From the sequence record OM864357.1: a DNA stretch of 42,949 nt. The stretch is one strand, 5' to 3'. Under the pieces are notes generated by a model, which was given only the letters and a program-made list of their open reading frames with translations, did no database searches and had not been told where the DNA came from. Below are positions 1 through 42,949 of the stretch, in pieces. Position numbers and translations under genes: made by a program. This stretch comes from Escherichia phage ZH5. Numbering within the stretch: the stretch's first letter is position 1; every line of letters begins with the position of its first letter.

Positions 1-127
1 GGGGGGGGGGGGCCGTCTAGACGTCTAGATGGCTAGTTGGGGGCCAGCTGGGGGCCGTCTAGGGCGCACCAGGAGGGCCGTAGAGGCTCTCTGCGCGGTC
101 TAATGGCTATCCCTAGTGCTATCCTAT
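1..127. repeat. Left copy of direct terminal repeat (terminal redundancy), starts with a G12 homopolymer
   Basis: Bases 1-127 are identical by eye to 42823-42949. The window ends exactly where the right copy ends, so the true repeat may be longer. Confidence 0.85.
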
Positions 128-35459: not shown

Positions 35460-35948
35460 ATGGCTGAGGAGAATAGGGCCACAGTGGTCTATGATGAGAC
35501 CAGCCCCAGTGGGTTGCGGTACGTAGCCAGCAGGTTTAAGTCTAGAGTAGGAGCCCCTGCGGGGGCCTTAAACTCCAAGGGCTATTATGACCTACGCTCT
35601 GCGCCTACTGGGTGTAACTCTAGGATGGCGCACGCTGTTTTGTGGGAACTACACAACGGGGGCATTCCAGAGGGGTTTGAAGTTGACCACATTGATGGCA
35701 ATCCAAGTAACAACCGAATAGAGAATCTACGTTTGGCTACCCGTTCTTTGCAGGCCTTTAACCGGGGAACACGAACCGACAAGCGCTCAGGTCTACCTAA
35801 AGGCGTATTCGTTAACGGTACAGGATTTATGGGGCGGACGTCTCGGGATGGTGTTCGTATATCTAAGACTTTTAGCACTGTAGAGGAAGCTGCCGCCTGG
35901 GTTGCCGAGGCCCGTAAAGTCTCGGCTGGGGCCTGGGTGCGTAGCTAA
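35460..35948 (+). CDS. HNH homing endonuclease with AP2-like domain (second copy)
   Basis: VDHIDGNPSNNRIENLRLAT HNH motif; ATG 35460 directly after the upstream TAA. Track ORF begins at 35415 inside the previous gene. Confidence 0.75.
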   Translation: MAEENRATVVYDETSPSGLRYVASRFKSRVGAPAGALNSKGYYDLRSAPTGCNSRMAHAVLWELHNGGIPEGFEVDHIDGNPSNNRIENLRLATRSLQAFNRGTRTDKRSGLPKGVFVNGTGFMGRTSRDGVRISKTFSTVEEAAAWVAEARKVSAGAWVRS

Positions 35949-36969
35949 GGAGGTCATCATAGCTTACTCATGGCAAGAACAAATCAAGCCAGCTGGTACC
36001 CAGGATATCCAGTGCGATATTGAGTATTTGGACAAGTCCTATATTCATGTATACCTAGACGGTGTGGAAACCACTGGGTACACCTGGACCAGCGCTACCA
36101 ATATAAGGCTGAATTCGGCCCTAACGGCGAGCACTACAGTGCTTCTCATTCGTAAGACTGAGCGCGAGTATCTGTATATTGAGTTTACTAGCGGCTCTCC
36201 GTTCATCGAGGTGAACGTAGACTCTCAAAATACACAGTTCTTGCACTTGGCGCAAGAGCTTGTGGAAGGCAGGGCTATCCCCGGATTCTACGGGGATATA
36301 AGCATGAACGGGTACCGCATCACGAATGTATCAGACCCGGTGGGCTTGCAAGATGCTGCTACCAAGCACTACGTAGACGTCGGGGATGCTAGACTAGACT
36401 CTCGTATTGATGCAGAACACGCCGCCTGGGTATCCGCTGATGCCGCCATCAAATCCTACGTTGTTTCTGAGGACGCCAGGCTAGACACCCGCATCGACAC
36501 AGAACGCGCCGCCAGGAAGGCTGCGGACGATGCCTTGAGTGTGCGTACCTCCGCTCTGGAAAACACCTTTATAAGTGGTGTAGAAACAGTAAGCTACCCG
36601 TGGAGCACGGTGCTTACAGAGGATACAGACGAGGTAACTCCAGGGCTAAAGTTTACTAAGGCTATAGTAGAACTTAATGGTGTTGGGCAGATTCGTGGCT
36701 ATAGTTTCGAGATTGTAGATAATACCATAATGTTTGCCGAGACTCTCCCTGCAGGAACGATCGTAGCTGCTCGATTAGGTGCTGATGTAACTGCAGGGGA
36801 TGGCTTCGCTACACAAGCATCTGTAGACCACTTAGCCAACTCATTAGGGGCTTTGGCGTACCTAGGCAAAGCAGAGGCTGTGGAGGATGCAACCGGTGCT
36901 GAGGACGTAGTGAATCAACTAAATGCATTACTAGCAGCACTACGTGCCAGCGGAGTAATAACATCCTAA
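35902..36969 (+). CDS. Tail fibre protein with T7 gp17-like N-terminal adaptor domain (start codon uncertain)
   Basis: CDIEYLDKSYIHVYLDGV... aligns by eye with the T7 gp17 N-terminus (NIPFEYLARKFVVVTLIGV). ORF open from TTG 35902; a TAAGGAGG RBS at 35946-35953 is followed in frame only by ATC/ATA. Confidence 0.7.
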   Translation: MPRPVKSRLGPGCVAKEVIIAYSWQEQIKPAGTQDIQCDIEYLDKSYIHVYLDGVETTGYTWTSATNIRLNSALTASTTVLLIRKTEREYLYIEFTSGSPFIEVNVDSQNTQFLHLAQELVEGRAIPGFYGDISMNGYRITNVSDPVGLQDAATKHYVDVGDARLDSRIDAEHAAWVSADAAIKSYVVSEDARLDTRIDTERAARKAADDALSVRTSALENTFISGVETVSYPWSTVLTEDTDEVTPGLKFTKAIVELNGVGQIRGYSFEIVDNTIMFAETLPAGTIVAARLGADVTAGDGFATQASVDHLANSLGALAYLGKAEAVEDATGAEDVVNQLNALLAALRASGVITS

Positions 36970-36981
36970 CAGGAGGATCAT

Positions 36982-37284
36982 ATGGCAGGGGCGGCTAAAC
37001 GCAGCCGTCTCTCGGAGCTGCATCGCATGTTCACAGAGGCTTTGATTGAAGAGATCAAACAGTCTAAAGAAGATGAGGTGCCGCTCCCGGCCGCAGATAA
37101 GTCAGTCATTGCTAAGTTCTTGAAGGATAATGATATCACTGCGGATGCAGATTCCGAGGAGATGCAGGACCTTCGTGACGAATTCGATGATGAACTAGCG
37201 GCGCGCAGAGAGGCGCGTAAACAAGAAATTTTAGGTAAGATTAGTGGATCTGACTCTGAGGACTTACTAGAAGGAATTGTCTAA
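36982..37284 (+). CDS. Terminase small subunit (DNA maturase A)
   Basis: 100 aa, acidic, directly upstream of the large terminase; AGGAGG RBS. Confidence 0.65.
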   Translation: MAGAAKRSRLSELHRMFTEALIEEIKQSKEDEVPLPAADKSVIAKFLKDNDITADADSEEMQDLRDEFDDELAARREARKQEILGKISGSDSEDLLEGIV

Positions 37285-39140
37285 TGGTATCGGTGAAGAC
37301 TGCGCGAAGACTGCGCATGCTCAACCAGAAACTTACTGGTTATAGTGTGAATCCGCGCAGTATTCCCAAAGAGGAGCGCGAGGATATCGCCATGATGATG
37401 GCGGCTACCCTCAGTAATTTCAGGGAATTCGCATACATCGGTATGCGTTTCCTAGGCTTTACGCTCACGGATATGCAAGCTGACATTGCAGAGTATATGC
37501 AGAAGGGCCCTAGGAAGCGCATGGTGGCCGCACAGCGTGGTGAGGCTAAATCTACACTGGCCGCGCTGTATGCTGTCTGGAGGCTCATCCAGGACCAATC
37601 CTGTCGTATACTGATTGTGTCTGGGGCGGAGAAGCAGGCGTCCGACGTTGCGAACTTAATCATTCGTATGCTGGAAACCTGGCCTCTGTTGTGCTACTTG
37701 AAGGCTGATCCTACTCGTGGGGATCGTACTTCATTCGAAGGTTATGATGTCAACTGCGACCTTAAACCTCTGGATAAGTCTGCTAGTGTAGCCTGTGTAG
37801 GTATCACTGCATCGCTGCAGGGTAAGCGTGCTGACCTCTTGATTCCAGATGATATTGAGACCACCAAGAACGGTTTGACACAAACCCAGCGTGAGCAGTT
37901 GCTGATGATTTCGAAAGACTTCGCAGCTATCTGTACACATGGGGATACACTGTACCTGGGTACACCGCAGACCAAGGACAGTATTTATAAAACCCTGCCG
38001 GGGCGTGGCTTCGAGGTGCGGGTATGGCCTGGACGCATCCCGTCAGTTGAAATGGAAGAACGATATGGAAGTACACTTGCTCCTTATATACTGCAGCTCA
38101 TTGAGCGGGGTTATAAACGCACCGGGTTCGGAGTAGATGGGACACTAGGTGAGAGCACCGACACCGGTCGTTATGATGAGGATGCGCTGATTGAGAAGGA
38201 GCTGGACTTCGGCCCAGAGGGCTTCCAGCTGCAGTACATGCTCGACACGACCTTGTCTGATCAGATGCGCACCCGTATTAAGCTGTCGGATATGCTTGTG
38301 TATTCCGGTAGCCTAGATTCCTCGCCTGAGACCTTCTCCTACATTGCGGACCGCCGGTACTTGTACCAGCACGAGCATGAGGGGATTATGGGTCAGCAGA
38401 TGTACTTCCCAGCATTCTATGGGGATATGCATCTACCGTATCAGCATAAGGTGCTAGTAGTGGATCCAGCAGGTTGTGGTGGGGATGAAGTGTCCTATGC
38501 TGCTGGTGGGGCTGCAAACTCATATATTCACTTGTTCTCCGTTGGGGGTTTCCAAGGAGGCGTAAGCACTGAGAATATCGATAAGCTCATTGATTTGTGC
38601 GTAGAGTTGGATATCTCTGACATGGTGGTGGAGAGTAACATGGGGCACGGTACTGTGTCTATGTTGATTCTGAACCGCCTGAGGGAGCGTCGCCTTGCCG
38701 GTATCGGTGTACGCGATATCAACAACACCACGCAGAAAGAGCGTCGTATTATTGACACAATCAGTCCTGTAACTCGACGACACCGCTTAGTGGTACATGA
38801 GCGTGCTATTCAAGATGATATTGGGACTTGTATGCTCTACTCCCGAGACCGTCGATGGCTGTACTCTGCGTTTGCACAGCTCGCAGGTATTACGTATGAT
38901 CGGGGAAGTCTAGCGAAGGATGACCGAGCAGACGCCATTGCTATGATGGTGGCAGTGCTGAACGGGCACCTGGTAGAAGATGAGAAAGTAGTAGCTGAGC
39001 GTGAGTCCGAGAAGATGGCCCTGGCCTTCATTGAGAACCCACTGGATTGGGCACAGAGTAAATTGTCTAAGGGACTTCGCGGTGTAGCGGCTCGGTTGCA
39101 GAACCGTGGCAGAGGTAAACAACATAGAGGAAGAAGATAA
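37284..39140 (+). CDS. Terminase large subunit (DNA maturase B)
   Basis: 618 aa; Walker A-like GAEKQAS/LIVSG region and VLVVDPAGCGGDE nuclease-domain motif; T7 gp19-like size and position. Confidence 0.8.
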   Translation: MVSVKTARRLRMLNQKLTGYSVNPRSIPKEEREDIAMMMAATLSNFREFAYIGMRFLGFTLTDMQADIAEYMQKGPRKRMVAAQRGEAKSTLAALYAVWRLIQDQSCRILIVSGAEKQASDVANLIIRMLETWPLLCYLKADPTRGDRTSFEGYDVNCDLKPLDKSASVACVGITASLQGKRADLLIPDDIETTKNGLTQTQREQLLMISKDFAAICTHGDTLYLGTPQTKDSIYKTLPGRGFEVRVWPGRIPSVEMEERYGSTLAPYILQLIERGYKRTGFGVDGTLGESTDTGRYDEDALIEKELDFGPEGFQLQYMLDTTLSDQMRTRIKLSDMLVYSGSLDSSPETFSYIADRRYLYQHEHEGIMGQQMYFPAFYGDMHLPYQHKVLVVDPAGCGGDEVSYAAGGAANSYIHLFSVGGFQGGVSTENIDKLIDLCVELDISDMVVESNMGHGTVSMLILNRLRERRLAGIGVRDINNTTQKERRIIDTISPVTRRHRLVVHERAIQDDIGTCMLYSRDRRWLYSAFAQLAGITYDRGSLAKDDRADAIAMMVAVLNGHLVEDEKVVAERESEKMALAFIENPLDWAQSKLSKGLRGVAARLQNRGRGKQHRGRR

Positions 39141-39514
39141 TGGCATCAATCATCGCGGCTAAAACCGCGGACGTCCAGTACGCTATTGTAGGTAAGAGCC
39201 AGAACCTCGAGAAAGAGGTGGCCCCGGATTATAATGTAGGTTTCGTGGGTACGGCTGCCCTAACTAAGCTGAATGCGTTCTTCACGTACATGCAGTCCCA
39301 GGGCTATACGGCTACCCGTGCCGGTACAGCCTTCAAGGATGATGGTACACTGCAGGCGCGCCTGTTCAGCATGCTGTCGCAGCTCTCTAAGACTGGTTAC
39401 GTTGCACTTACAGGTACTGGTATGCCACTAGGTGAGGGTTCTGGTACAGCGTTTGATACTTCGTTCACCGCACTACAGAGTGCGTTTGTAGCCGCTACTG
39501 ATGCGGAAGAATAA
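39140..39514 (+). CDS. Hypothetical protein (124 aa)
   Basis: ATG overlaps the terminase stop; Gly/Thr/Ala-rich. Confidence 0.55.
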   Translation: MASIIAAKTADVQYAIVGKSQNLEKEVAPDYNVGFVGTAALTKLNAFFTYMQSQGYTATRAGTAFKDDGTLQARLFSMLSQLSKTGYVALTGTGMPLGEGSGTAFDTSFTALQSAFVAATDAEE

Positions 39515-39525
39515 GGAGAGTACAC

Positions 39526-39708
39526 ATGGCAATTGCTAAAGCTACCCCAGCACAGCGTCAGGAGCTGCTGCGTCAGCTGAACATTCTCGGTAAGGACCTC
39601 TATGCAATCCTTACCCAGCCTCAGGATGTAGCCCAGACAGGTGCAGCGTTCGACGCTAAGATTGCTGCGTTAGAAGCTGCTGTTGCAGCTGTGAAGGCGG
39701 CCAGCTAA
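39526..39708 (+). CDS. Hypothetical protein (60 aa, Ala-rich helical)
   Basis: GGAGAG RBS; precedes the lysis cassette. Confidence 0.5.
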   Translation: MAIAKATPAQRQELLRQLNILGKDLYAILTQPQDVAQTGAAFDAKIAALEAAVAAVKAAS

Positions 39709-40112
39709 TGCGTAAACTGGTCGCTGGGTTACTACTCGTGGTTACTCTGACTGGTTGCTCAGCGACCTCTGCACTTACCGGCTTAGTTGGTTCTAAGCCG
39801 GAAGTATCTGCTCAGGTTGGCGCTGAGAATACTAAGCAGATGCTCGGGCTGAATAATAAGGTGGACTCCAGCACCACCAACAAAACCGATGTACAGGATT
39901 CTAACGTAGGTACACTGGATACTTCTAGCAAGAAGCAAGTGCAGACTATTAGTACAGGCACAATCCAGGCAGAGCGCCTACAGGTGGTTAACAACGATAG
40001 TTACAGTCTTATTCTCGCCGGATTAGCCGGGGCCAGTATTCCCTTGGTCTTCCTAGTGACCATTCTGGTGATTCGTAAGCTGTTCAGGAAGAAAGGTCAA
40101 CAGGATGATTAA
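39708..40112 (+). CDS. Candidate unimolecular spanin (N-terminal lipoprotein signal plus C-terminal TM anchor)
   Basis: Lipobox LTGC at residues 15-18 after a hydrophobic signal; Ser/Thr/Gln-rich middle; C-terminal LILAGLAGASIPLVFLVTILVI followed by RKLFRKK. Confidence 0.6.
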   Translation: MRKLVAGLLLVVTLTGCSATSALTGLVGSKPEVSAQVGAENTKQMLGLNNKVDSSTTNKTDVQDSNVGTLDTSSKKQVQTISTGTIQAERLQVVNNDSYSLILAGLAGASIPLVFLVTILVIRKLFRKKGQQDD

Positions 40113-40356
40113 AGTAGGAGACGTAGTTGGGGCAGACCTCGCTACCCGGGCAGGTGCAGCAGTTACTGGCGCTACAGTCTCAGGAGGCTGGTTGGCAGAG
40201 CTAATGAGTTGGAACTGGAGTGTTATCAGCTTCATCACTGCGACGGTATGTGCAGTGCTAACCCTGGCGTGGAATGCGTATTACAAACGGCGTACGTACA
40301 AGCTCCTAGAAGAGCATGCACGTAAGGGGGCTATTAAATATGAGTTTAAGGACTAG
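40105..40356 (+). CDS. Holin, pinholin-like (two TM segments, first Gly/Ala-rich)
   Basis: 83 aa; TM1 ATRAGAAVTGATVSGGWLAEL is weakly hydrophobic, TM2 SVISFITATVCAVLTLAW is strongly hydrophobic; basic C-terminus; adjacent to a SAR endolysin. Confidence 0.6.
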   Translation: MIKVGDVVGADLATRAGAAVTGATVSGGWLAELMSWNWSVISFITATVCAVLTLAWNAYYKRRTYKLLEEHARKGAIKYEFKD

Positions 40357-40939
40357 GGTTATAGCTGCACTCGCCGGGGCTACTATGCTTGGCGGGGCTA
40401 TTACTGAGGTAGTCCAGCACAATGAAGGTTTGAGCCTTACAGCCTACAAAGACAGTGCCGGTATCCCTACGATCTGCTACGGAGAGACAAAGGGTGTCAA
40501 AATGGGTCAGAGAGCCACTCTGAGCGACTGTCAGAAGCAACTAATAGAATCAGCAGGGGAACATGCTAAGGCTCTTGACGGGCTTCCTATGCAGCTCTCT
40601 GACGTGGCTCTGATAGGGTCTGTAGACTTCATCTATAATGTAGGCGTAGCCGGCTTCAATGGCAGCGCCGTGAAACGGCACCTCAAAAACCTTGATTACG
40701 CAGCGGCTGGAAAGGCTGTGCTGGACTGGCGTTACATTAGCAAGTATCAGCAGAAGTCCCCAGGCACCGGTTGGGTGTACAAGGGTGGCAACCGCTGGAT
40801 CTTCGACTGCTCCCAGTATATTAACGGGCAGCGCAATAAGGTGTGCTGGGGCCTATGGGAGCGCCGTGTGTGGGAAGCCAAAGCTATTGGCAATGAATAT
40901 GAGTCTGTGCAGGTAGCTGTTGCTGCTACGCCTAAATGA
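40340..40939 (+). CDS. Endolysin, GH24 lysozyme with N-terminal signal-anchor-release (SAR) domain
   Basis: EGLSLTAYKDSAGIPTICYGET matches the phage lysozyme catalytic motif (E...D...T); N-terminal VIAALAGATMLGGAI is a SAR-like segment; AAGGGGG RBS. Confidence 0.8.
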   Translation: MSLRTRVIAALAGATMLGGAITEVVQHNEGLSLTAYKDSAGIPTICYGETKGVKMGQRATLSDCQKQLIESAGEHAKALDGLPMQLSDVALIGSVDFIYNVGVAGFNGSAVKRHLKNLDYAAAGKAVLDWRYISKYQQKSPGTGWVYKGGNRWIFDCSQYINGQRNKVCWGLWERRVWEAKAIGNEYESVQVAVAATPK

Positions 40940-40948
40940 GGAATAGTA

Positions 40949-42676
40949 ATGAATCTAATTTCGTTAGTAGATGTAAGTTCAAGGCAGGTACAGAACTCCT
41001 TACTTACAGTAAATACAGTTGCCGAGTTGCGTAATATCCAAGCTAAGGCAGGTCAACGCGTTCGTTGGTTAGGATATTTTAACCTCAACGATGGTGGTGG
41101 TAATACAGGATATGTTACCGCAGGTCCACTTACTGCGGATAACGGGAGTGTGTTCCTGCTTAATAATGGAATGTACGTACGTGCAGTGTTTGAGTCTAAA
41201 GTAGACCCGCTTCAGTTCGGCGTCTCAGGAAGTAATACCTCTGCGGACAATAAGATACGGTTTGACCGTATGGTTAGTTATTGTCTCAATACAAAGACCG
41301 CTATTGAATATTCTCGTAGTATGGACTACCAGTGTGACCCGGTGCGCATTAGCGGTGCCTCTGCGGACTTCTTTAGTATTACTGCTCCGCGAGCAAGTGT
41401 AACTCACCGCTGTCCTAGCGCATCAGACCACGCATTTATTCTGCAAGGTGCAGCTCCCGTAGCCCCAGCATCATACGATACGTTCCAGCATTGTACTGTA
41501 TCAGGGCTCAGGATTGTAAGTTCATTCAGCTGCATTTATACCCGCTATACAGAGAACTTGGTCATTGAGAAGTGCTTGTTCAGCGGCGGCTCATTAGGTG
41601 CAGCTACTGGCGTGGGGATAACTATGTCATACAATGGCCCACTGGAAACCGATATTAAGCCGAGAATAAGGAACTGTATATTTTCGTACTGCAAACACGC
41701 GATACTCGGACAAACAGCAGTAGCAGAGACGGACCGAGGCCGCGTAGCGGATGGGGTATTTGAAGACCTTGTGGCATTAAATTGCGGCGGCACTACCGGA
41801 GACTTTGTGTACCACTTACCTTACATGGATGGGGCCATACTGAACAAAGTAGAGGCATACCAGGATTCTTTTAACACTGTGGCCGCTAATGGTATTCTGC
41901 TACAAAAACCTACGTTAGTTAATCTGACAAACTGCAACATGTTTGGATTAGGTGGGTACGGGATACAACTACTCAGTCCTCGTGGTGTCTGCATAGATAG
42001 CACCAACACAATACAAGGGTGTGGTAAACAAGGAAACCGCACGGCACTTGTTGTGTCCAGCCTGTCGTCAAGTATTACCACTCAGAATGTGAAATTAAGC
42101 CCTAGAATTCGTGACTGTTACGGTAGTGCTGTGCAGATGCAAGGTGTCTCTAACATAGACCTTTCAGGTTTAGAGGAGTACGGGAACTGCCGAGGTACCT
42201 CTAGTGCCGCTGGATGGTCCTTCCTGAACTGTCAGGGCGTGCGCCTGCATAATGTACGCGCAGACAGCGCAGGTACTGCCTTTCTGAACGTGGACGGGGG
42301 AAGTGTTGAACTGTTTAATCCCACGTTCCTACAGTACACCTCTCAGATATTACTGGCTAACTCGGCGACTGTCAGGGTACTTCCTGCTGAGCGTATTCTG
42401 CAAGTAAACGCAGCTACCTCTCCTGGCGGTATTGTAGATGAAGTACAGTATGACGCCAGTACAGGCTCAGCTATCGTCACCTTACCCAGCGCCAGTAGCT
42501 TCCCCGGTAAGGTTATTCGTATCATTAAGACTGATTCAACTTCTAATGGCATAGGTATCTTCCCGGCAGCGGGTCAATCTATTAATGGGGCAACCTCCTA
42601 CAGCCTTACTGCACAGTATTCGTTCGTGCAGCTGCGCAGTACAGGGTCTAACTGGTTAGTTATAGGTAAGTCCTGA
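40949..42676 (+). CDS. Tailspike protein, candidate polysaccharide depolymerase; lacks a gp17-like N-terminal anchor
   Basis: 575 aa, last gene before the right terminal repeat; Gly/Ser/Thr/Asn-rich periodic sequence consistent with a beta-helix; no T7 gp17-like N-terminus. Confidence 0.6.
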   Translation: MNLISLVDVSSRQVQNSLLTVNTVAELRNIQAKAGQRVRWLGYFNLNDGGGNTGYVTAGPLTADNGSVFLLNNGMYVRAVFESKVDPLQFGVSGSNTSADNKIRFDRMVSYCLNTKTAIEYSRSMDYQCDPVRISGASADFFSITAPRASVTHRCPSASDHAFILQGAAPVAPASYDTFQHCTVSGLRIVSSFSCIYTRYTENLVIEKCLFSGGSLGAATGVGITMSYNGPLETDIKPRIRNCIFSYCKHAILGQTAVAETDRGRVADGVFEDLVALNCGGTTGDFVYHLPYMDGAILNKVEAYQDSFNTVAANGILLQKPTLVNLTNCNMFGLGGYGIQLLSPRGVCIDSTNTIQGCGKQGNRTALVVSSLSSSITTQNVKLSPRIRDCYGSAVQMQGVSNIDLSGLEEYGNCRGTSSAAGWSFLNCQGVRLHNVRADSAGTAFLNVDGGSVELFNPTFLQYTSQILLANSATVRVLPAERILQVNAATSPGGIVDEVQYDASTGSAIVTLPSASSFPGKVIRIIKTDSTSNGIGIFPAAGQSINGATSYSLTAQYSFVQLRSTGSNWLVIGKS

Positions 42677-42822
42677 TTAAGTCCTAAGTAAGTCCACTGC
42701 AAAGGCTCCTGTCCTGAGCACGTGTAGACAGGCACCTAGAAAATATTAGACTCACGCGAGGCCCTCCCTCACCCTCAACGCGCCCCAGTGCCCCCATAGG
42801 GGGTGCCTAGCGTATAAATGAG

Positions 42823-42949
42823 GGGGGGGGGGGGCCGTCTAGACGTCTAGATGGCTAGTTGGGGGCCAGCTGGGGGCCGTCTAGGGCGCACCAGGAGGGC
42901 CGTAGAGGCTCTCTGCGCGGTCTAATGGCTATCCCTAGTGCTATCCTAT
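42823..42949. repeat. Right copy of direct terminal repeat
   Basis: Identical to 1-127; preceded by one extra G (13-G run at 42822-42834). Confidence 0.85.

Follow-up and report, generated by a model that had tools for sequence, protein, structure and literature searches.

The lysis cassettes of the KP34-like phages are the closest described counterparts of the locus studied here. A u-spanin, a pinholin and a SAR endolysin, in that order, have been given as a trait of the genus 'Kp34likevirus' by Eriksson et al. 2015 (PMC4411677), and the same three families in the same order, between terminase and tailspike genes, are found in Minorna (MK598851). This type of cassette is already known: it is published as genus-defining for the KP34-like phages and is routinely annotated in GenBank, and in the literature on Drulisvirus we found no paper testing the function of any of the lysis proteins. 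The same functional logic is seen in T1, a siphovirus (Drexlerviridae) that has the pinholin gp13, the SAR endolysin gp12 and the u-spanin gp11, arranged as holin-endolysin-spanin. Phage 21 provides the paradigm holin S21 and endolysin R21, but has a two-component spanin (Rz/Rz1). The Pseudomonas phage phiKMV, also a member of Autographiviridae, likewise has its cassette after the terminase genes and uses the pinholin/SAR-endolysin strategy, but with the order holin-endolysin-Rz/Rz1 and a two-component spanin (PMC4411677).

The window analyzed here is the whole 42,949-nucleotide stretch of DNA from the podophage Escherichia phage ZH5 (OM864357.1). Megablast of this stretch matched 250 phage records, nearly all of them Klebsiella or Escherichia Drulisvirus with an identity of 86-94%, and a 25-kb stretch had a nucleotide identity of 92-93% to SFN6B, phiHAO78-1, KPV811 and Minorna. 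These matches identify the window as a Drulisvirus genome that is almost complete. Three overlapping genes, located between the terminase and tailspike genes in the order spanin-holin-endolysin, very probably serve this KP34-like podophage (Drulisvirus, Autographiviridae) as its late lysis cassette, with a predicted three-step pinholin / SAR-endolysin / u-spanin pathway. The features of the region are as follows.

39526-39708, plus strand: conserved 60-aa soluble protein, PHROG 7375 (function unknown), whose stop overlaps the spanin ATG
39708..40112, plus strand: predicted u-spanin gene, 134 aa, T1 gp11 homologue (ORF, PHROG 1804, identity to T1 gp11)
39708..39758, plus strand: predicted lipoprotein signal peptide ending in the lipobox LTGC, with the Cys17 codon at 39756-39758 (LPAM_1, regex)
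40008..40073, plus strand: predicted TM helix at the C-terminus of the u-spanin (aa 101-122), then a basic tail on the cytoplasmic side, RKLFRKKGQQDD (KD, Hessa dG, AF2)
40105..40356, plus strand: predicted holin gene, 83 aa, P21 S-family (pinholin-type) (PF04971, PHROG 20)
40150..40206, plus strand: holin aa 16-34, weakly hydrophobic and Gly/Ala/Ser/Thr-rich, candidate SAR-like TMD1 (KD, Hessa, GAST)
40216..40272, plus strand: holin aa 38-56, strongly hydrophobic predicted TMD2, followed by a basic C-terminal tail (KD, Hessa)
40340..40939, plus strand: predicted SAR endolysin gene, 199 aa, GH24 lysozyme, with the Shine-Dalgarno sequence AAGGGGG nine nt upstream of 40340 (PF00959, 3HDE)
40358..40414, plus strand: predicted SAR segment of the endolysin, aa 7-25, VIAALAGATMLGGAITEVV, located after R4 and R6 and lacking Cys (KD, GAST, R21 alignment)
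40424..40471, plus strand: predicted catalytic motif E29-x8-D38-x5-T44 (translation, alignments)

The three reading frames (39708-40112, 40105-40356 and 40340-40939) and their overlaps of 8 and 17 nt were exactly as a preliminary description of this DNA had given them. The holin ATG at 40105 precedes the spanin stop (TAA, 40110-40112; ATGATTAA), and the endolysin ATG at 40340 precedes the holin stop (TAG, 40354-40356). Both overlaps are also annotated in Minorna and in PhiM1, and the gene order is common to Minorna, vB_EcoP_P64441 and PhiM1. In the KP34-type relatives the proteins have the same lengths (134, 83 and 199 aa), and the cassettes differ from that of ZH5 by point substitutions only, with a nucleotide identity of 86-94% and a u-spanin identity of 93-99%, whereas the flanking tailspike gene of ZH5 is unrelated to those of the relatives. 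The counts of predicted promoters and terminators between 36900 and 42949 did not clearly exceed those expected from shuffled sequence, and none of the sites was well placed. Together with the overlaps of 1, 8 and 17 nt, the lack of convincing internal promoters and terminators suggests that the lysis genes are co-transcribed with the terminase genes and translationally coupled.

Several lines of evidence support the prediction of the 134-aa protein as a u-spanin of the T1 gp11 family. It matches PHROG 1804, 'Rz-like spanin' (E 1e-50), has more than 1,100 homologues and is 40% identical to the u-spanin prototype T1 gp11 (51/126 residues, E 2e-26). Its identity to the proteins of F19 and others of the KP34 group is 93-96%, and the F19 homologue aligns over 100% of its length with 93.3% identity. 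Kongari et al. 2018 (PMC6139136) list KP34, F19 and NTUH-K2044-K1-1 in this family, for which they clustered proteins with minimum values of 40% for both identity and the share of the length covered. The ZH5 protein lies within these limits relative to both T1 gp11 (40%) and F19 (93.3%). According to the same paper, T1 gp11, the one member for which this has been shown, complements the lambda RzRz1 defect, and the u-spanin mode of action is still a model. The homologue in Minorna is annotated as 'unimolecular spanin', which is also the identity that had been proposed for the ZH5 protein.

The proposed topology, a lipobox LTGC after a signal peptide combined with a C-terminal TM helix, was likewise recovered. 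Residues 1-18 match Pfam LPAM_1 with 20.1 bits (cut-off 20), the lipobox with Cys17 matches a PROSITE PS51257-like pattern (by regex), and G16-C17-S18 is invariant in the alignment of six homologues including T1 gp11. The residue at +2 is Ser18, as in T1 gp11, and not Asp. In Lol sorting, Asp at +2 leads to retention in the inner membrane, and Ser at this position is not a retention residue, so the u-spanin would be sorted to the outer membrane. The predicted TMD at 101-122 has a Kyte-Doolittle value of ~2.4 and a summed Hessa dG of ~-0.1 and is followed by RKLFRKK; in the AF2 model, residues 96-129 form a helix with the highest pLDDT in the protein. The periplasmic residues 28-95 have low confidence in this single-sequence model (pLDDT ~48), and only a short helix (36-44) is modelled there. 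For the gp11 family, Kongari et al. 2018 (PMC6139136) describe a beta-rich periplasmic domain in which several beta strands come after a short helix.

A single protein had been suggested to replace the usual i-/o-spanin pair. When all six frames of the entire stretch were scanned for lipoproteins from all ATG, GTG and TTG starts, the 134-aa ORF was the sole credible candidate, and no hidden or embedded o-spanin was detected. The other three pattern matches were out-of-frame or antisense ORFs within large structural genes. As there is no other lipoprotein candidate, the stretch appears to contain no o-spanin, and a two-component spanin was rejected. The 134-aa lipoprotein could in principle have another role, for example in superinfection exclusion like T5 Llp or Cor, with some other factor breaching the outer membrane; the function of the Drulisvirus protein is predicted from its sequence, and several records annotate it only as 'lipoprotein' or 'hypothetical protein'. 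However, the homology to T1 gp11 with its complementing activity spans the whole periplasmic domain, the TMD at the C-terminus is conserved, the lysis cassettes of several genera have this gene overlapping that of the holin, and no alternative spanin was found in the stretch, which makes such a role extremely improbable.

The 83-aa protein encoded next is supported as a predicted pinholin-type holin of the P21 S family, in line with the earlier suggestion of a pinholin-like holin. It matches PHROG 20, holin (E 8e-17), and is annotated as a holin in the relatives. It also matches the PF04971 model 'P21 holin S', although marginally (27.6 bits, gathering score 26, E 2.8e-6) and over residues 27-67 only, which correspond to profile positions 21-61 of 64. 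Its predicted partner is the SAR-type GH24 enzyme encoded by the next gene, which overlaps that of the holin. Sequence identity to S21 in the alignment is 19%, and the similarity to T1 gp13 is weak, covering the TMD and the C-terminal tail.

Of the two TM segments previously described for this holin, the hydrophobic second one stands (aa 38-56, KD 1.81, Hessa sum 0.5) and aligns with TMD2 of S21 and the TMD of T1 gp13, whereas the Gly/Ala-rich first one is weak. This candidate TMD1 (aa 16-34) has E32 within it and D11 and R15 as flanking residues, and does not reach ordinary TMD thresholds; its KD is 0.98, its Hessa sum 6.5 and its GAST fraction 0.63. The corresponding values for TMD1 of S21, calculated from a sequence checked against phage 21, are 0.64, 6.4 and 0.63, and the pattern of a weak candidate TMD1 and a strong TMD2 is comparable to that of S21. 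By analogy, aa 16-34 may be an S21-like TMD1. These holins are described as single-TMD proteins of class III in Eriksson et al. 2015 (PMC4411677) and in the Minorna announcement. A canonical single-TMD (class III-like) holin forming large holes, with the Gly/Ala-rich N-terminal segment soluble or amphipathic, is an unlikely alternative to an S21-type pinholin with two TMDs. The conventional hydropathy threshold is passed by 38-56 alone, D11 and R15 lie within the 19-residue window 7-25, and the marginal PF04971 match does not include residues 1-26. In contrast, TMD1 of S21 is proven to exit the membrane and is no more hydrophobic than the ZH5 segment by the measures above, and a large hole is unnecessary with a partner endolysin that has a SAR domain. 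Furthermore, the authors of PMC4411677 count one TMD yet conclude that the holin is a pinholin.

S21 is also produced as a holin and antiholin from two starts (M1 and M4), while the predicted ZH5 pinholin lacks a dual-start motif: M1 is the only Met near its N-terminus, the next being M34, and neither GTA nor GTT, which occur early in the frame, is a start codon. The dual-start motif is typical of S21 and is not required for pinholin function. Upstream of the spanin gene, the stop of the 60-aa ORF shares one base with the spanin ATG (TAATG), a coupling found also in the more distant phage vB_EcoP_P64441. The 60-aa protein might be a fourth component of the cassette, for example a lysis regulator acting as a cytoplasmic antiholin or as a timing factor for the spanin or holin, and in that case it would stand in for the dual-start antiholin missing from the 83-aa holin. 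Position and coupling are the support for this role, which we regard as very unlikely.

The 199-aa protein is supported as a predicted R21-type SAR endolysin. It matches PF00959 with 75.1 bits (cut-off 22.3, E 8e-21), and its matches in PDB are 3HDE, 4ZPU and 3HDF. The best of these is 3HDE, the full-length P21 SAR endolysin R21 (E 9e-10, residues 2-139), and the alignment begins at residue 2, within the N-terminal SAR region, and includes the E-D-T triad, which agrees with the SAR segment preceding a GH24 motif that had been described earlier. The segment has a KD of 1.79 and a GAST of 0.53 and is conserved in homologues. Six aligned homologues, T1 gp12 among them, all have E29, D38 and T44, which correspond to EG..D..T in R21. 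The ZH5 endolysin and T1 gp12 are homologous GH24 SAR endolysins (28% identity, E 7e-14), but gp12 lacks two features of the ZH5 protein, an insertion of ~25-35 aa at roughly residues 139-168 and a C-terminal extension of 12 aa. The start at ATG 40340, giving the 199-aa form, is the one used in the preliminary description and the one annotated in Minorna. A 207-aa product from the mechanical ORF start at 40316 was rejected, as no Shine-Dalgarno sequence precedes this start, P64441 and PhiM1 do not have its ATG, and the relatives annotate 199 aa.

R4 and R6 followed by a hydrophobic stretch are laid out like the n-region and h-region of a signal peptide, and a cleavable Sec signal at the N-terminus of the endolysin (making it a secreted SP-endolysin) could be considered instead of an uncleaved SAR anchor. 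This seems highly improbable, as no AxA-type cleavage site could be read from the sequence after the h-region (…AITEVVQHNEG), the h-region is Gly/Ala-rich as in known SAR domains, and the segment aligns residue for residue with the SAR domain in 3HDE. R21 keeps its SAR domain, which becomes part of the active enzyme on refolding. Residues 1-45 of the predicted ZH5 SAR endolysin contain no Cys, and the second catalytic residue is Asp and not Cys. Because the SAR segment lacks Cys and the triad has Asp, activation by disulfide caging of the P1 Lyz type was rejected.

The analysis shows the ORFs, motifs, topology signals, homology and conserved synteny, and all functional steps of the lysis pathway outlined here are drawn by analogy from the P21 and T1 paradigms. 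The endolysin would be exported by Sec and held inactive in the inner membrane by its Gly/Ala-rich N-terminal SAR helix, while the 83-aa holin would build up in the inner membrane and at a programmed time form small holes that collapse the proton-motive force. Depolarization would then release the SAR helix, and the GH24 domain, with a SAR helix lacking Cys, is expected to refold to its active form as in R21, and not through the disulfide isomerization of P1 Lyz, and then to degrade the murein. After lipoylation at Cys17, the 134-aa u-spanin would be sorted to the outer membrane with its C-terminal TMD kept in the inner membrane, and its 83-residue periplasmic domain would pass through the murein meshwork. 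Loss of the murein would leave the u-spanin free to bring both membranes together and to disrupt the outer one, probably through fusion.

For annotation, the value of these results is that the three gene calls of the predicted lysis cassette are fixed, including the endolysin start at 40340, and that the stretch is identified as a Drulisvirus genome.

An earlier reading of the sequence alone had proposed a lysis cassette made of a unimolecular spanin (u-spanin), a pinholin-like holin and a SAR endolysin, and both the observation and this interpretation proved correct. The three ORFs are present on one strand in the ORF list and in the sequence, and when recomputed, the overlaps were the 8 nt between spanin and holin (ATGATTAA) and the 17 nt between holin and endolysin that had been described. 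The cassette and the genes discussed with it are:

35902-36969, + strand: second receptor-binding gene, 355 aa, lying 5' of the terminase genes; its N-terminal domain is that of the T7 tail fibre (PF03906)
39140-39514, + strand: 124-aa conserved protein, PHROG 7128 (E 1e-78), no Pfam match
39526-39708, + strand: 60-aa alanine-rich conserved protein, PHROG 7375, no TMD
39708-40112, + strand: spanin, 134 aa (ORF list and sequence)
40105-40356, + strand: holin, 83 aa (ORF list and sequence)
40340-40939, + strand: endolysin, 199 aa from the ATG at 40340 chosen in the preliminary description; start at 40316 in the mechanical ORF list
40949-42676, + strand: tailspike, 575 aa, with a right-handed beta-helix domain (PF13229), directly 3' of the endolysin

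The spanin has the lipobox (LTGC) and the C-terminal TM helix that had been claimed. MRK and a hydrophobic stretch accompany the lipobox, and the helix, a strongly hydrophobic segment at residues 101-122, is followed by RKLFRKK. Its only Pfam match is the lipoprotein attachment site LPAM_1 (residues 1-18; 20.1 bits, cut-off 20), and it matches PHROG 1804, 'Rz-like spanin', at full length (E 1e-50). The residue after Cys17 is Ser, which is not one of those that keep lipoproteins in the inner membrane. That this single protein replaces the i-/o-spanin pair is supported by its homology to the T1 u-spanin gp11 (NC_005833; 40% identity over 126 residues, E 2e-26) and by a six-frame scan of the window, in which no other lipoprotein start was credible and thus no separate o-spanin was found. 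When aligned with five homologues, the protein shares invariant G-C-S, S-A-L, P31, Q36, G38, E40-N41, K43-Q44, G47, K51 and D53. By tblastn the family was present in 1,140 phage records, with identities of 93-99% in Drulisvirus at one end of the range and about 38-50% in T1-like Drexlerviridae at the other, and Phimunavirus between them; many of these records are labelled 'U-spanin' or 'unimolecular spanin'. A single-sequence AF2 model recovered the two terminal helices and was uninformative for the periplasmic domain.

The holin scores 27.6 with PF04971, 'Bacteriophage P21 holin S', for which the gathering score is 26, and it also matches the PHROG 20 holins (8e-17); no dual-start motif was found in it. 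Of the two TMs originally assigned, the second stood as the only conventional TMD (residues 38-56), whereas the first (residues 16-34, AGAAVTGATVSGGWLAELM) is a marginal candidate: its Kyte-Doolittle value is 0.98, its Hessa free energies sum to 6.5, and Gly, Ala, Ser and Thr make up a fraction of 0.63. TMD1 of S21, the paradigm pinholin of phage 21 (P21), is a segment that leaves the membrane and is exactly as marginal (0.64, 6.4 and 0.63, computed with one script for both; the S21 sequence used matches the holin/antiholin annotated in Escherichia phage 21, OL657228.1, at 100% identity). This is why one TMD is counted in the literature and two were counted in the earlier reading.

The endolysin is a phage lysozyme (PF00959, E 8e-21) with the expected GH24 motif, E29-x8-D38-x5-T44, which is invariant across six homologues including gp12, the SAR endolysin of T1. 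Its best solved-structure match is the full-length P21 SAR endolysin (3HDE), in an alignment that starts at residue 2 and spans the proposed SAR segment, where R4 and R6 precede the Gly/Ala-rich VIAALAGATMLGGAITEVV. As this segment lacks Cys and no AxA site follows it, we infer that activation is best explained by R21-type refolding, as in P21, rather than by disulfide isomerisation of the P1 Lyz type. Compared to T1 gp12, the endolysin has about 25-35 extra residues (about 139-168; 40754-40843), which contain Cys157, and a 12-residue C-terminal extension (40901-40936); the insertion is full in PhiM1 and only partial in P64441. The mechanical ORF list over-extends this gene. The additional in-frame stretch at 40316-40339 (MHVRGLLN) has no Shine-Dalgarno sequence and is probably unused. 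Its ATG is missing from vB_EcoP_P64441 and PhiM1; of the relatives compared, Minorna alone, a very close one, retains it. AAGGGGG stands before the ATG at 40340 with a spacing of 9 nt, and the product is therefore 199 aa long.

With megablast, 39400-41000 matched 250 phage records, nearly all Klebsiella and Escherichia Drulisvirus phages (86-94% identity), and over a stretch of 25 kb the window shares 92-93% identity with Shigella phage SFN6B, Escherichia phage phiHAO78-1, Klebsiella phage KPV811 and Escherichia phage Minorna. Together with the Autographiviridae layout, in which the + strand carries all long ORFs, these comparisons indicate that the window is an essentially complete KP34-like podophage genome. 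Its ends carry an exact 127-nt direct repeat (1-127 and 42823-42949). This could be a true terminal repeat or an overlap from circular assembly, and 127 is a common maximum k-mer of assemblers. For the drulisvirus fHe-Kpn01 a terminal repeat of 222 bp has been reported, longer than that seen here. An assembly overlap is more likely, and in that case the unique genome length would be 42,822 bp.

The start of the 124-aa protein overlaps the stop of the terminase large-subunit gene, and the stop of the 60-aa ORF overlaps the spanin start (TAATG), with the same one-base coupling, TGATG, in vB_EcoP_P64441. By its position and this coupling, the 60-aa ORF might be a fourth lysis-associated gene. On the other side, none of the Drulisvirus relatives remains similar in nucleotide sequence beyond about 40894-40951, where the endolysin gene stops, and among 50,697 phage records the tailspike has a full-length relative only in Escherichia phage Alux-21 (46% identity). 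The second receptor-binding gene would give phage ZH5 the two-RBP arrangement that is typical of KP34-like phages.

The order spanin-holin-endolysin between terminase and tailspike is also found in Minorna, vB_EcoP_P64441 and Pectobacterium phage PhiM1, with identical 8- and 17-nt overlaps in Minorna and overlaps of 8 and 17 nt in PhiM1 as well. In contrast, the order is holin-endolysin-spanin in T1 and in Cronobacter phage ESP2949-1, and thus the same three gene families occur in two permutations. Matches to consensus promoters and terminators in 36900-42949 were not clearly above shuffled expectation and none was well placed; on the simplest reading, the cassette would be co-transcribed with the packaging genes and translationally coupled.

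Previously, the cassette of KP34, SU503, SU552A, NTUH-K2044-K1-1 and F19 has been described as 'successively: spanin-holin-endolysin', with a u-spanin, an 83-residue holin concluded to be a pinholin and a SAR endolysin, and used as one criterion for a new genus in contrast to the holin-endolysin-Rz-Rz1 of phiKMV (Eriksson et al. 2015, PMC4411677); the fHe-Kpn01 paper repeats this genus-level description. The 28-member T1 gp11 u-spanin family includes KP34, F19, NTUH-K2044-K1-1 and phiKDA1, its members are located in pinholin/SAR-endolysin cassettes, and gp11 complements a lambda RzRz1 defect (Kongari et al. 2018, PMC6139136). The Minorna homologue is annotated as a unimolecular spanin in its announcement (PMC6554615). 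The cassette is already known and routinely annotated. In the literature we found no Drulisvirus lysis protein that had been tested by experiment; we infer by homology that the cassette's mechanism of lysis would be that of T1 and P21.
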